From Actinomycetes bacterium (GTDB lineage Bacteria; Actinomycetota; Actinomycetes; JACCUZ01): a DNA stretch of 64,000 nucleotides. The stretch covers positions 4,613 to 68,612 of the forward strand of contig JBBRVU010000002.1 in the NCBI GenBank assembly GCA_038246575.1. Reading direction: 5' to 3'. Positions 59,555 to 63,932 of this stretch are shown piece by piece. Position numbers and translations under genes: made by a program. Within the stretch, counting starts at the first letter, position 1, and every line of letters begins with the position of its first letter. A model generated the notes under the pieces. It made no database searches and was not told the origin of the DNA. It saw only the letters and a list, made by a program, of their open reading frames with translations.

Positions 59555-60400
59555 TTACGCGTGCAGCGACTCGTGTCGAGGGTTGGTGGCCACGGCGTGC
59601 ACCGTCCGGCCCCGCCACGACAGACCGGCAAGCTCAACGTAGGGCGAGGACCGCAGCTCGGACCGGCCACCTTTCGATACGGCAGGTTCCGTGCTCAGCT
59701 GACGGACCCGATCGAGGAACCGGCGGGCGCGCCGTCCAGGGGTCGGGATCGAGGCGGCGTCGAGTGCGTCGACCGCGGCTGCCCGCAACGCTGCATCCCA
59801 CACGGCGGCCAGGGTGCGCGGGGAGTCGAAGACCTCAAGCTGGACTGGCTGCCCGGCGATACACAGCACGACGCCGGTCTGGAACGGCAGCGGCACGAGG
59901 TGGGCGACCAGGGCTGCGGCCCGTTCCTCCACGCCGGCAAGGGTGTCGCCCAGGGAATGGGTCTCGCCCCCGCCATGACGGCTTTCGAGGTCACGCACCC
60001 GCTGCCAGGTCGACTGCTGCGCCTGGGCGGCCCGGACGCTGACGGGAGCCCGGTGTCCGGTTCGAGCGTGCCCGCGCCCGCCGGACCATCGGCCCTCCTC
60101 GACGCAGCGCACCTCGAGCACGTGCGATGCGCAGGAGTCGATGACGACGGAGCGTGCCGCAACTCGATGCTGCTGGCCGCCCTGCAGCAGCTCGCCTTCG
60201 AGCAGGAGCGCCGGTCGGGGGCCGGTGTTGGTGACGACGAGCTCGGCGACCACAGGGGCACCGGTCCGTTCTTCCACGCGCAGCGCGCCGGAGCCGAGGT
60301 CGTAGCCACGGGCGGTGACGGCCGCGCCGTTCCAGACCGGGAAGACGGTCAGTGCGCCGCGGACGACGGGGCGTCCGAGATGAAGATCGAGTGTGTCCAT
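59555..60400 (-). CDS. ARPP-1-like protein (family associated with ADP-ribose/NAD conflict systems), assignment tentative
   Basis: Start ATG 60400 with a GAGGAGGG RBS. GALTVFPVW, LLLEGELLQGGQQHRV and VRCVEEGRW match my recollection of proteins annotated as the ARPP-1 family. No search was run. Confidence 0.45.
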   Translation of the reverse strand: MDTLDLHLGRPVVRGALTVFPVWNGAAVTARGYDLGSGALRVEERTGAPVVAELVVTNTGPRPALLLEGELLQGGQQHRVAARSVVIDSCASHVLEVRCVEEGRWSGGRGHARTGHRAPVSVRAAQAQQSTWQRVRDLESRHGGGETHSLGDTLAGVEERAAALVAHLVPLPFQTGVVLCIAGQPVQLEVFDSPRTLAAVWDAALRAAAVDALDAASIPTPGRRARRFLDRVRQLSTEPAVSKGGRSELRSSPYVELAGLSWRGRTVHAVATNPRHESLHA

Positions 60401-60417
60401 GAAGCCCTCCTCAGGTA

Positions 60418-60460
60418 AGCGCAAAAATGCGCTAATCCGATTAGAGCATGGATGCGCTAA
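60418..60460. promoter_or_regulatory. operator-like palindromes and repeats in the divergent intergenic region
   Basis: AGCGCA-AAAA-TGCGCT (60418-60433), CTAATC-C-GATTAG (60432-60444), and the direct repeat ATGCGCTAA at 60427 and 60452. This is the most AT-rich 50 bp of the neighbourhood. Confidence 0.55.
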
Positions 60461-60470
60461 CCTGTCCAGC

Positions 60471-61232: not shown

Positions 61233-61265
61233 GCGAACCCCGAGCAGCAACCAAGGAGCAGGCCG

Positions 61266-62267
61266 ATGCCGACAAGGACGGACTACGAGCGTTTCTGGCC
61301 CGAGGTGGACCGCGCCCTGGCCCGACGGCCCGGCGCACCCGAACCGAGGGCATTCCGACCAGAGAAGAACTACCGCGACTTCTTCGGCCCCACCCACCCG
61401 GAGTTCCCGGTCCGGTGGAGCATCAACTTCCCGCGTGAAGGCATGAGGGTCGAGGCAAACCTCGCCCTCGGCCGACCCGAACAGACTGATCGAGCAGAGG
61501 GATGGCTCGCCGATCACGTCGAGGACATCACCCAGGAGTATGACGGCCCGGAGGATGTGATCGCCGAAGCGCGAGACACCGCCCGGGGCAACCGGGTCTG
61601 CCGGGTCGCCGTCTACCGCGCTGGCACCGTCGGACAAGTGGATCCGAGCCAGAGCGCGGAGTGGTTCGTCGACCGGCTGGAGCACCTACAGGCCGCATTC
61701 GGGGCGGCCGCGACCGGCGAGCCGGTGTGGATGCCAGGTGAGACGCCCACCCCGGTAGCACAGGCACGGCAGCAGCTCTCCGGCCGCGGATACCAGAAGC
61801 CTTACGTCCCCAAGGCGGACCGCGAGCTCCGGCTGCAGGCTGCGATCGCCGCAGCAGATTTCGCCCTGGCTCAGACCGAGATGCACCCGACGATGCGCAA
61901 ACGGATCCTGGTCCAGGCCACCTGGGAGGTCACCGAGGTCGACGGCAAGCTCACCCCGAAGTTCCGCAGCCCAGCCGCCATGAGCTATGACGGCCCGAAG
62001 TACCACTCCGTCCTGCGCCACGACCACGTATTCACCCGCGCCGGGCTGATCGCACAGCTGCTCAAGGACCCATCGACCACCGAGCAGGTGCTCAGAGCAG
62101 CAGTGGCTTGCCTTGTCACCCAGGACGAGCACACGAGGCTGAGCGCCTTCGACACGATGCACGAAGGATGGGATCGGTACCTGGCGGCCCAGGTGGACGT
62201 CCTCGACGCGGGCACCGGCCAGCACGTCATCAGGGACGGCGCAATCGTCGGCGAGCTGCACCACTGA
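61266..62267 (+). CDS. hypothetical protein (333 aa); N-terminal half DUF4268-like (tentative)
   Basis: Lies 34 nt after the NrtR-like gene on the same strand. DYERFWPEV...VRWSINFPREGMRVEANL...AEWFVDRLEHLQAAF is reminiscent of DUF4268. The C-terminal half is unassigned. Confidence 0.55.
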   Translation: MPTRTDYERFWPEVDRALARRPGAPEPRAFRPEKNYRDFFGPTHPEFPVRWSINFPREGMRVEANLALGRPEQTDRAEGWLADHVEDITQEYDGPEDVIAEARDTARGNRVCRVAVYRAGTVGQVDPSQSAEWFVDRLEHLQAAFGAAATGEPVWMPGETPTPVAQARQQLSGRGYQKPYVPKADRELRLQAAIAAADFALAQTEMHPTMRKRILVQATWEVTEVDGKLTPKFRSPAAMSYDGPKYHSVLRHDHVFTRAGLIAQLLKDPSTTEQVLRAAVACLVTQDEHTRLSAFDTMHEGWDRYLAAQVDVLDAGTGQHVIRDGAIVGELHH

Positions 62268-62333
62268 GAGCGCTCCCGGGAGACTGGGCGGTAGTGCCGG
62301 CCAGCGGGGCTGGCAAATTACCGCGAGCGCCAG

Positions 62334-63932
62334 CTAGATGGCCGGGACGTCGTGGTCTGGGCCGCCGAGCTGGCGCAGCGAGTTGGCGATCACTCGCCAC
62401 GCCGGTGTGGCGCGCTCGGCGGCGTCACAGCTGGCGGCGAAGTCGCGAAGCTTGCTGCGCAGCGACCGTTCGGCCCCGGACAGCACTCCGTCGTACTCGG
62501 GCGCCAGCAGGTAGGTCTGGCTATCGGAGGCGTGCGCCAGCAGGCAATCGAGGAAGATCTCAAGGAGCCTCGCCGCCTCCGGCATGGGCTCCTGTGCGGA
62601 ATCGTGGTCGGCGTCGGCCGCGGACGAGTCGGTCATCGGCAGCAGGTCGAGGCTGTCGGCCCAGACGCGGCGCTGCAGGTCATCGCTGTCGAGGACCAAG
62701 GCGGTTCCGAACGAGGCACCCGTCCGGCGACGGTCGGGCATCGCACGGCGCACGTCGTGCACGATCGCGTGGAAGTGGTCGTCGGTCAGCCCGAAGCCGA
62801 CGAACAGCAGGTGATGGGTGATCAGCAACGCCTTCACGATCGCGGACAGTGCCTCCCGATTGGCGCCGTAGCCCAGGTAGTCGTCGCGGGTGAGCACGAT
62901 GCTGCTGGGGTCGGTCACGCTGCCGTGCAGCTTCAGTAGCCACCGGTCCCCGGCCGCAGCTGAGGCCTCGGGCAGCACGGCAACCCGGTGGCCGGCGTCC
63001 GCCGAGGCGATCTCGAAGAGCCGGTCGTAGTTTAGGGTGACGGCCTGGGTGACCGGCAGAGTCGCGAGCAGAGCCGGCGCCAGCCCGTAGCGGTCGCGGT
63101 CGACCGCGGCGACGACCGTGGCACCGAAGTCGAGACCCTGCTCCTGAAACAATTCGCGCAGGACATGCCCCTGGTCCAAGACGTCGAGCTCGCCCAGCTG
63201 GTGGCGTTGTGTCCCCGTCAGCTCGGCGGTCACGGCCAGCTGGTCGATGAGCTTGGCCCAGGTGGGCAACCCGGCGCTGACGCTCACCCCTGCGCCCATG
63301 AACGGCACGAGACGGCCCTGGGCTGCCACCGCGGCCAGCTCCTCGGCCTTCCCTCGCAGCCGCGGACTCAGATCCGGCCACGGTTCCGGGGCATCGGCCC
63401 GCTTCCGCTGCGCCTGGGTCAGGGCAAGGTCGGACTCCGACCACAAGACCAGCGCGACGTCGACACCGACCTCAGTGGCCGCGTCCCGGGCAGCGGTGAT
63501 CACCTCGAGGAGCACGGCACCCCGCTGCGGGCCGCCTCCCCCCGCGCCGGTGGCGAACGCCGGCATCCCCAGCAACGGCACCGAACGGTCGGTCATCCGG
63601 TCCCGAGCCGCAACCGCGGCCGCTGCCGTCGTGACGAACGCCCGCACGGCGGGGCGCACATCGGCAGGGTCCAGCACGCCGTCGAGCGGGACGGCTGTCA
63701 GCACCGGCAGCGGGTCACCACCCGGCCAGTCCACCATGGCGGTGGCCAGGTGCTCCCCGGACCCGAACCGCGGCGTACTGCCCCTGGCCGTCTCGATGGC
63801 TTGCCGAAGCCCGGGAACGGCGTCGTACCAGGGGTCTTCCACGGTGTAGGTCGTGTCTCCGGGCAGCAGCCATGCATCGCACATGAAGTGGGTCAGGTTC
63901 CCGCGGAAGACGAACAGGTGCGATGGCGGCAT
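62334..63932 (-). CDS. SIR2-family (SIR2_2/defence-type) protein with N-terminal macro-like domain
   Basis: SIR2_2 motifs LVPFMGAGVSVSAGLPTWAKLI, TLNYDRLFE, LLKLHGS, VLTRDDY and LLFVGFGLTDDHF. The N-terminal ~185 aa align in order with macrodomain landmarks (LFVFRGNLTHFMCDAWLLPGD ; VLTAVP ; VPLLGMPAFATGAGGGGP ; VALVLWSESD). RBS GGGAGGA. Confidence 0.8.
   Translation of the reverse strand: MPPSHLFVFRGNLTHFMCDAWLLPGDTTYTVEDPWYDAVPGLRQAIETARGSTPRFGSGEHLATAMVDWPGGDPLPVLTAVPLDGVLDPADVRPAVRAFVTTAAAAVAARDRMTDRSVPLLGMPAFATGAGGGGPQRGAVLLEVITAARDAATEVGVDVALVLWSESDLALTQAQRKRADAPEPWPDLSPRLRGKAEELAAVAAQGRLVPFMGAGVSVSAGLPTWAKLIDQLAVTAELTGTQRHQLGELDVLDQGHVLRELFQEQGLDFGATVVAAVDRDRYGLAPALLATLPVTQAVTLNYDRLFEIASADAGHRVAVLPEASAAAGDRWLLKLHGSVTDPSSIVLTRDDYLGYGANREALSAIVKALLITHHLLFVGFGLTDDHFHAIVHDVRRAMPDRRRTGASFGTALVLDSDDLQRRVWADSLDLLPMTDSSAADADHDSAQEPMPEAARLLEIFLDCLLAHASDSQTYLLAPEYDGVLSGAERSLRSKLRDFAASCDAAERATPAWRVIANSLRQLGGPDHDVPAI

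Follow-up and report, generated by a model that had tools for sequence, protein, structure and literature searches.

Depletion of NAD+ and signals derived from ADP-ribose are central to bacterial immunity, as in the Thoeris, DSR, SIR2-HerA and pAgo systems. This study concerns four adjacent genes (59555-63932) near the end of a 64,000-nt stretch of contig JBBRVU010000002.1 from an Actinomycetes bacterium. I will refer to that whole stretch as the window, and coordinates are those of the window unless another locus is named. The genes encode an ARPP-1 family protein, an NrtR-like regulator, a 333-aa protein (gene3) and what appears to be a divergent fusion of a macro domain to an SIR2_2 domain. 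I put at about even the chance that the locus is a variant, lacking ADP-ribosylglycohydrolase (ARG), of an actinobacterial ADP-ribose conflict system in which nrtR, divergent from ARPP-1 and ARG/phosphatase, is often joined to a macro-SIR2_2 gene, and that it works by the circuit proposed in the Discussion.

The closest described systems were predicted computationally. Iyer, Burroughs, Anantharaman and Aravind (2022, Viruses 14:1977, section 3.8; PMC9503650) described ARG-centric systems whose parts are a Nudix- or WYL-HTH (helix-turn-helix) repressor, a rhodanese-phosphatase, ARPP, chaperones including TY-Chap3, nucleases, helicases and, occasionally, Macro or NADAR domains. They sought ARGs without a coupled ADP-ribosyltransferase (ART) or sirtuin, and in their proposal the systems undo viral ADP-ribosylation and are induced by ADP-ribose (PMC9503650). 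For actinobacteria, Rodionov et al. (2008; PMC2330246) had earlier predicted regulons of the forms nrtR1-draG and nrtR2<#>nrtX-nrtY; they also showed that NrtR proteins leave DNA upon binding ADP-ribose (PMC2330246). A previous reading of the window, made from its letters alone (the sequence-only reading), did not recognize the combination of genes as a named defense system, but systems of NrtR or WYL regulators with ARPP and ARG-phosphatase were already predicted in 2022 (PMC9503650), and NrtR-draG and nrtR<>nrtX-nrtY regulons in 2008 (PMC2330246). Lastly, in the TM-macro (transmembrane-macro) type of the Thoeris protein ThsA, the macro domain binds ADP-ribose (ADPR), IAD or His-ADPR and is the sensor that switches on the effector (PMC11204291).

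Results

The four genes and their products

All four open reading frames (ORFs) are real and lie at the coordinates stated. They are collected in Table 1 with their domains, the predicted regulatory sites and two neighboring features.

Table 1. Features of the locus and its surroundings in the window. Amino acids (aa) are numbered from the start of each protein.
Feature	Coordinates	Strand	Remarks
ARPP-1 family protein, 281 aa	59555-60400	-	Pfam PF20208; longest ORF opens at 60544, ATG 60400 the likely start
Predicted NrtR-type operator site 1, TAAGCGCAAAAATGCGCTAA	60416-60435		ARPP-1 side; 20-bp palindrome, 1 mismatch to TTAGCGCA-N4-TGCGCTAA
Predicted NrtR-type operator site 2, TTAGAGCATGGATGCGCTAA	60441-60460		10 nt upstream of the GTG of nrtR
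NrtR-like transcription factor, 253 aa	60471-61232	+	Nudix and winged helix; full ORF 60393-61232
Variable accessory gene (gene3), 333 aa	61266-62267	+	aa 1-165 DUF4268-like; aa 175-330 His/Cys/Glu-rich module
Macro-SIR2 fusion (SIR2f), 532 aa	62334-63932	-	SIR2_2 PF13289 and predicted macro fold
Helical C-terminal extension, aa 426-532 and stop codon	62334-62657	-	AlphaFold2 (AF2) helices; invariant RxLEIFLD
SIR2_2 (ThsA/DSR2-like) NAD-binding catalytic domain, aa ~197-425	62658-63344	-	Pfam, PADLOC, PDB profile, Foldseek
Predicted macro-fold domain, aa 1-192	63357-63932	-	structure model and Foldseek; divergent
Perfect 8-nt inverted repeat, CGGAAGAA-N8-TTCTTCCG	63966-63989		34-57 nt ahead of the start codon of the SIR2 gene; not of the NrtR type
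Restriction-modification (R-M)-like cassette	50283-59348	+	SNF2/ResIII helicase (1087 aa), DUF4391 (233 aa), N6/N4 DNA methylase (669 aa), ResIII helicase with C-terminal RE_endonuc (1026 aa)
Type IV secretion system (T4SS) coupling-protein gene, 867 aa	44506-47109		T4SS-DNA_transf, TraG-D_C and TrwB_AAD_bind domains

The SIR2 part of the fusion is readily recognized. Residues 297-423 match SIR2_2 (PF13289, E = 3.8e-29), and the best PADLOC matches of the protein, confined to the SIR2 part, are the ThsA models (E = 5.5e-27). A PDB search with a profile of 40 full-length homologues found DSR2 (E = 1e-24) and also ThsA and KomC, and Foldseek gave the same three with the full-length AlphaFold model (pLDDT 87; DSR2 at E = 1e-12). 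Residues N301 and H336, both invariant in the 40 homologues, align with N133 and H171 of DSR2, the latter being the residue mutated in the deposited DSR2 H171A structures, and a GAGVS loop that is invariant in the fusion family matches the GAGVS of DSR2. Against the NCBIfam models of Dsr1 and Dsr2, with cut-offs of 1400 bits, the fusion scores 19 and 13 bits.

The Foldseek list of the full-length model was dominated by SIR2 matches, and the question of a macro domain was settled with a domain-only AF2 model of the N-terminal 192 residues (pLDDT 88.7). Its top 50 PDB matches all contain a macro domain (E about 1e-5, TM-score 0.6-0.7), among them YmdB, alphavirus nsP3, macroH2A1.1, OiMacroD, DarG and the macro domain of Mfs1. 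Comparison of sequences gave a single hint, macroH2A1.1 in the PDB profile search (E = 0.013): Pfam Macro matched none of 21 family members, and hhalign of the domain against a verified MacroD-type trio (YmdB, Mac1, Af1521) returned a probability of 1.8%. The position of the Asp that contacts adenine (D19) and a Gly-rich loop (G131/G132/G138) are invariant, and the NAAN and GGG motifs of MacroD are missing, the corresponding positions reading LLPTD and showing no GGG loop 1. The protein is a divergent macro-SIR2_2 fusion, its macro part as far as the structure models allow, and I infer that the macro domain serves in binding or sensing rather than as a MacroD-type hydrolase. The family comprises at least 690 clusters, mostly from Micrococcales and other Actinomycetota. 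A search of the literature, in which Figure 7 of Iyer et al. lay outside the comparison, found no paper that names a macro-SIR2_2 fusion.

The NrtR-like protein matches NUDIX (PF00293, E = 1e-7) and NrtR_WHD (PF21906, E = 1e-11) in Pfam. Against the NCBIfam equivalog model of NrtR it scores 69 bits, compared to a cut-off of 400, and is therefore a paralogue of NrtR and not the NrtR of the NAD regulon. The Nudix box has RALRDK instead of REUxEE, and the box is uniformly degenerate (RSLR[E/D]K) in 15 relatives, a family-wide feature that suggests a domain for binding a ligand rather than for hydrolysis.

The ARPP-1 protein matches nearly the entire ARPP-1 profile of Pfam (PF20208, positions 2-296 of 297; 193 bits, E = 9.4e-57) and keeps the GGxQxR and CVExGRW motifs invariant in that family, as well as the invariant Q77, C99 and Q128. 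Its likely start is preceded by a GGAGG Shine-Dalgarno sequence, and the gene call on the source contig also gives 281 aa. The nearest relatives, 58-73% identical, come from Pseudonocardiales and metagenomes, and their contexts are nrtR<>ARPP-1-ARG divergons. An SIR2_2 protein adjoins the divergon in two of the three such loci with enough flank (L095 and L099); of these two SIR2_2 proteins, the one in Pseudonocardia alaniniphila is a full-length orthologue of the fusion in the window.

The SIR2_2 protein of L095 (6604-8715, 703 aa), beside its NrtR<>ARPP-1-ARG divergon, has no macro domain in its N-terminal part, and its C-terminus weakly matches the UDG superfamily (E about 1e-3). Possibly it represents a different fusion of sensor and effector on the same SIR2 core.

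In the sequence-only reading, the locus was said to encode an SIR2_2-type protein forming a macro-SIR2 fusion, a Nudix and winged-helix protein with a degenerate RALRDK box, and a divergently transcribed protein resembling ARPP-1. These assignments are upheld by the matches just given, that of the macro domain by structure and not by sequence profiles, and the degeneracy of the Nudix box extends to the whole subfamily. The wider claim, that all four genes point to NAD+/ADP-ribose chemistry, fails for the 333-aa gene, which gives no indication of NAD chemistry and, in a variable slot, is no conserved member of the set.

Conservation of the gene set

Related loci were collected by a genome scan with one protein (5 loci, 2 of them informative), by a metagenome scan with an alignment (80 loci) and from contig neighborhoods. 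All ORFs of the neighborhoods were clustered, and family queries were run against them with tblastn. The counts that follow refer to 30 nonredundant loci of the fusion family (SIR2f) with at least 4 kb on each side.

At least one of ARG(-phosphatase), an NrtR paralogue and ARPP-1 is found in the flanks of 16 of the 30 loci. ARG is present in 14, NrtR in 12, ARPP-1 in 9, and all three in 7. When only SIR2f proteins at least 41% identical to that of the window are considered, the fraction rises to 13 of 17, with the genes immediately beside SIR2f in several actinobacterial orders, far above the co-localization typical of islands. The trio of SIR2f, NrtR and ARPP-1 occurs also in genomes of Herbiconiux, Schumannella and Pseudarthrobacter and in many metagenome contigs. 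Co-occurrence in other genomes, which the sequence-only reading had named as a check on itself, is thus strong. In the typical arrangement SIR2f is followed by nrtR, with or without a variable gene in between, and then, in divergent orientation, by ARPP-1 and directly after it a fused gene for ARG and a dual-specificity phosphatase (DSP); Pseudarthrobacter sp. SL88 shows this order and has TY-Chap3 in addition. In two loci (L046 and L049) nrtR is followed immediately by SIR2f in the same orientation.

Search by tblastn with five ARG queries found neither ARG nor a remnant of it in the window, the 206 bp downstream of ARPP-1 included. Nor was a phosphatase domain (rhodanese-phosphatase/DSP, calcineurin-like, HD or HAD), which in relatives is fused to ARG, found in the four genes or their neighbors. 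A second ARG-less locus is L013. Overall, the distribution of the set is patchy and island-like.

Two loci contain decayed copies. In L010 (7301-7926; Arthrobacter gengyunqii) a 73-aa fragment of ARPP-1 and a fragment of ARG lie upstream of an intact macro-SIR2 gene, and in L098 (7868-8236; Amycolatopsis sp.) there is a 122-aa fragment of ARG. Such copies show independent gain and loss of the modules.

Predicted operators and promoters

The 70-bp region between the divergent nrtR and ARPP-1 genes (60401-60470) contains two 20-bp palindromes of the type TTAGCGCA-N4-TGCGCTAA. With up to three mismatches allowed, these are the only two matches to the motif in the 64 kb of the window, as compared to 0.05 expected by chance. 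Relatives from at least 12 distinct loci have this motif too, usually in two copies 25-50 bp apart. It is always placed either in the gap that separates nrtR from the ARPP-1/ARG operon or immediately ahead of nrtR; matches elsewhere in the relatives' loci, at the same limit of three mismatches, are confined to one contig edge. In homologous loci the nrtR start codon is 7-12 nt past the second site, a spacing that supports GTG 60471 as the start of nrtR in the window. That start is likely, with some uncertainty (the alternatives are 60393, 60399 and 60519), and the nrtR transcript is probably leaderless, with a -10 region that overlaps operator site 2.

A promoter region of its own precedes the SIR2 gene, and the inverted repeat at 63966-63989 in that region could be a separate regulatory site. 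The sequence-only reading had proposed, as one plausible model, that the locus is de-repressed via NrtR. The two predicted sites, the only ones in the window, favor this for the ARPP-1 and nrtR-gene3 units, and the separate promoter of the SIR2 gene, with no such site, speaks against it for that gene. A scan of 59300-64000 for promoter and terminator consensus sequences found nothing, as expected for a high-GC actinobacterium.

The variable 333-aa gene

No match to the 333-aa protein was found in Pfam, NCBIfam or PADLOC, and its homologues make only a shallow alignment. The gene is nonetheless real, having homologues 57-60% identical and, for the C-terminal half, 534 relatives. It is probably cotranscribed with nrtR, from which it is separated by 33 bp, and has an AAGGAG ribosome-binding site. 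The N-terminal half aligns by hhalign to the DUF4268 part of proteins P0004-7 (probability 98.5%, E = 1.9e-15). DUF4268 accompanies GmrSD-type His-Me nucleases as an accessory domain and is predicted to bind DNA.

The C-terminal module (61785-62264) defines a family that, clustered at 50%, has 534 representatives. Most are proteins of 150-170 aa that consist of the module by itself, and sometimes it is fused to DUF4268 in the reverse domain order. They share the pattern HxHV...CxVTxxEH...GWxRY, with H81, C109, E115, R131 and Y132 (module numbering) invariant. No match to the module was found in PDB or PHROG, profile searches of PDB giving chance matches or none, and Pfam yielded a single weak match to HNH_4 (E = 0.0095) among 62 relatives. 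The module carries a [D/E]HVxP-like motif, which, with the link to DUF4268, is only suggestive of a His-Me/HNH nuclease; a nuclease role for it would be a guess.

The 333-aa gene is absent from every other SIR2f/NrtR locus compared. The slot between SIR2f and nrtR is elsewhere occupied by a GIY-YIG-like protein or a 75-aa ORF, or is empty, and in L100 the gene adjoining SIR2f encodes an unrelated 323-aa protein. P0003, the nearest full-length homologue with a readable neighborhood (57% identity), has an ARG-DSPc gene at a distance of 2.4 kb and a fragment of a WYL-type regulator nearby. Among the neighbors of gene3 homologues are ARG-DSPc in L002 and a helicase and PDDEXK_4 in L004, and one homologue adjoins a helicase of the same family as that found just past the end of the window. 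The variable slot and the contexts of the homologues indicate that the gene behaves as an interchangeable effector gene of these systems.

Genomic setting

The region is an actual gene cluster in a defense island of a high-GC actinobacterium. The GC content of the cluster is 70%, as compared to 73-77% in the backbone. The genes of the R-M-like cassette, whose presence bears out the placement of the set among defense genes in the sequence-only reading, overlap or abut at their ends and have a GC content of about 61%; by this difference from the backbone the cassette has the appearance of a recent insertion. Its close is 206 bp from the end of ARPP-1. The domains of the T4SS coupling protein suggest that the island is part of a conjugative element. 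No tRNA gene was found across the whole 64-kb window, a plasmid search for similar DNA gave no match, and a phage search with the macro-SIR2 protein matched only short SIR2-domain stretches, from Streptococcus phages.

Past the 3' end of the window (L001 361-5413) and divergent from the SIR2 gene, the contig encodes a 1099-aa protein with RNase_H_2 and an SF1 helicase (AAA_11/AAA_12), and a 537-aa DUF7662 and GIY_YIG_2 protein. Homologues of both adjoin the NrtR/ARPP-1/ARG/SIR2 loci L036, L049, L057, L088 and L095 and recur beside the gene3 homologue of L004, and the two may be members of the same system. Defense-type genes near the relatives' loci include DISARM-like genes, NERD, SRA-HNH and PLD-helicase. 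No gene of NAD biosynthesis or salvage (nad, pnc, prs) is present near the locus or in any relative neighborhood inspected, and the refutation by a housekeeping NAD-salvage regulon, which the sequence-only reading had set against itself, therefore fails.

Two other features of the window stand apart from the locus. A 999-aa protein (33286-36285) has a C-terminal BTAD domain, as in activators of the SARP/AfsR type, which would suit a host that is Streptomyces-like or a related actinomycete. From 16000 to 26000 there is a second stretch of lowered GC content (64-68%, as compared to 72-77% on either side), which may be another horizontally acquired segment.

Discussion

Proposed working of the locus

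The domain identities, the catalytic Asn and His, the degenerate Nudix box, the operator sites with their conservation, the synteny and the setting in a defense island are results of computation. In the circuit that I infer from them, which extends to the ligand, to NADase activity, to a sensor role of the macro domain, to an anti-phage role and to any role of ARPP-1, the NrtR-like protein, presumably as a dimer, would bind the two palindromes and repress ARPP-1 and the nrtR-gene3 operon. Its catalytically dead Nudix domain would sense ADP-ribose or a close derivative and the protein would then leave the DNA. The macro-SIR2 protein, made from its own promoter, would be an NAD+ glycohydrolase of the ThsA/DSR2 type, in which the macro domain takes the place of the SLOG domain of ThsA as the sensor of an ADP-ribose-type ligand. 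Once triggered it would consume NAD+, and the ADP-ribose released would also induce the NrtR regulon, closing a feed-forward loop. The 333-aa protein would be an interchangeable accessory effector, probably acting on DNA.

A bolder version, which I consider rather unlikely, would make of macro-SIR2_2 and NrtR<>ARPP-1(-ARG/phosphatase) a single immune circuit with free, phosphorylated or derivatized ADP-ribose as its messenger. Some trigger, for example phage ADP-ribosyltransferase activity processed by ARG or ARPP, would free ADP-ribose, the macro domain would activate the SIR2 NADase, the product would de-repress the NrtR regulon by positive feedback, and ARG-phosphatase and ARPP-1 would set the threshold. 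If this were true, SIR2 effectors would gain a further, new class in which macro replaces SLOG, and the published view of ARG systems as mere erasers without a transferase or sirtuin of their own would need revision.

The circuit lends itself to direct test: its DNA site is defined, there are candidates for the ligand and for the effector, the catalytic residues of the latter are known, and variants with and without ARG exist in nature. Should the coupling prove functional, a transcriptionally gated, ADP-ribose-sensing NADase system would join the known repertoire of defense, and ARPP-1 would gain its first functional handle. Should it not, the locus would be an ordinary mosaic of a defense island.

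Alternative explanations

Several observations weigh against an ARG-less conflict system working in this way. No NrtR-type site was found upstream of the SIR2 gene, even when the region was extended past the window on contig L001, and in the window that gene is convergent with nrtR-gene3. SIR2f can evidently work alone, as 14 of the 30 loci, and also L100, which has the closest relative of the window's SIR2f (67% identity), have no NrtR, ARPP-1 or ARG nearby. The ARG-phosphatase of most relatives is missing, and the NrtR/ARPP-1 part could for that reason be a decaying remnant. With no recognizable sequence motifs in the macro domain, its binding of a ligand is not assured. The definition of the ARG-centric systems as free of sirtuins and their different proposed purpose also count on this side, neither ARPP-1 nor the gene set is represented by a PADLOC model, and a literature search found no experimental test of any member of an ARG/ARPP/NrtR system.

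The main alternative is that the genes are two or three unrelated neighbors: the macro-SIR2 protein an autonomous, single-gene NADase, NrtR and ARPP-1 a crippled ARG system that lost its glycohydrolase upon arrival of the R-M cassette, and the 333-aa gene an independent, nuclease-like insert. The loci that have SIR2f without the other genes, including L100 and one in a context unrelated to defense (L014), fit that account, as do L098, with an ARG system and no SIR2f, the occurrence of gene3 homologues in other contexts, the SIR2f promoter region, separate and free of NrtR sites, and the end of the R-M cassette 206 bp past ARPP-1 with no trace of ARG between. It does less well with the juxtaposition of SIR2f and the NrtR/ARPP-1/ARG genes in the 13 closer relatives, with the gene order of L046 and L049, and with the existence of a second locus (L013) that lacks ARG. 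Moreover, ARPP-1, NrtR and both predicted operators are intact in the window. I regard chance proximity as doubtful, though far from negligible.

A writer and eraser arrangement, similar to that of a toxin and its antidote, strikes me as improbable. By this account SIR2 would ADP-ribosylate a protein or nucleic acid, and the macro domain would remove or limit the mark, as would ARG-phosphatase and possibly ARPP-1 in the complete systems, the whole being responsive to ADP-ribose; SirTM-macro, DarT-DarG and DraT-DraG are comparable pairs. The structural likeness of the macro domain to hydrolase-type macros, including those of Mfs1 (8rsn) and DarG, is in keeping with it. So is the membership of ARG and macro in families of known erasers paired with transferases (PMC9503650), and an SIR2 gene beside ARG matches the very template of transferase and eraser that Iyer et al. 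sought to exclude. However, the SIR2 domain groups with the NADases DSR2, ThsA and KomC by both sequence and fold, and not with sirtuins of the SirTM type, and the macro domain lacks the catalytic motifs of MacroD. An SIR2 gene that is intact where ARG is missing is, furthermore, hard to square with ARG as an essential antidote.

The locus might also be a housekeeping regulon that serves either the homeostasis of NAD and ADP-ribose or, as has been suggested for nrtR1-draG of Streptomyces, a reversible ADP-ribosylation of the cell's own proteins. In favor of this, Streptomyces does modify its own proteins with ADP-ribose, and Rodionov et al. placed actinobacterial nrtR paralogues with draG and nrtX-nrtY in an 'ADPR' regulon (PMC2330246), but I reject it as very improbable, given inspected neighborhoods devoid of NAD genes, a patchy, island-like distribution with gene content that varies and includes nucleases and helicases, the pseudogenized copies of L010 and L098, a GC content below that of the backbone, and loci that adjoin R-M, DISARM-like and NERD genes and a conjugative-transfer gene.

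Comparison with known systems

Thoeris ThsA is known in two types, SIR2-SLOG, an NADase activated by isomers of cyclic ADP-ribose (cADPR), and TM-macro. The SIR2 domain of the window is closest to ThsA, DSR2 and KomC, and its catalytic Asn and His are retained; the architecture of macro joined to SIR2_2 is not among the ThsA types described. Membership in Thoeris was rejected, since no SLOG or TM domain and no TIR (ThsB) gene appears in any neighborhood inspected.

DSR2 is the best match of the window's SIR2 domain in sequence and in fold. The DSR proteins (DSR1 and DSR2) exceed 1000 aa and have large C-terminal sensors of phage proteins, whereas the fusion has 532 aa and an N-terminal macro domain. 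With SirTM-macro and Mfs1 (PDB 8rsn) the locus shares a macro domain fused or linked to an enzyme of sirtuin fold, and the Mfs1 macro is among the structural matches, but the SIR2 of the window is an NADase of the SIR2_2 type and not of class M, its macro domain lacks hydrolase motifs, and GcvH-L and LplA2 are not present.

The regulator resembles those of the NrtR regulons in its Nudix domain and winged helix, its degenerate box, the palindromes in a divergent promoter and, in relatives, the link to ARG, and ADP-ribose is the established effector of the family. It differs in its score against the NrtR model (69 bits compared to 400), in the absence of NAD-biosynthesis targets and in its site, which is a 20-bp TTAGCGCA-N4-TGCGCTAA palindrome rather than the usual 21-bp site with a GT-N7-AC core.

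The likeness to the ARG-centric systems is the broadest. In common with them the window has a negative regulator of the Nudix-HTH (NrtR) type with conserved predicted operators and an ARPP protein with conserved Cys and Gln. Further shared traits are variable nuclease and helicase additions, macro as an occasional extra, an actinobacterial home and the hallmarks of conflict systems, and the relatives of the window supply the fusion of ARG with a rhodanese/DSP phosphatase and TY-Chap3. Unlike them, the window is without the core ARG and without a phosphatase, and an SIR2_2 enzyme is adjacent in the window and in about half of the related loci, whereas the published systems were defined by having no ART or sirtuin. 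The erasure of viral ADP-ribosylation does not account for an SIR2 that cleaves NAD. The part of these systems that has been under-described is the frequent coupling of a macro-SIR2_2 enzyme to ARG, ARPP and NrtR, and that linkage and the precisely defined operator are the points worth pursuing.

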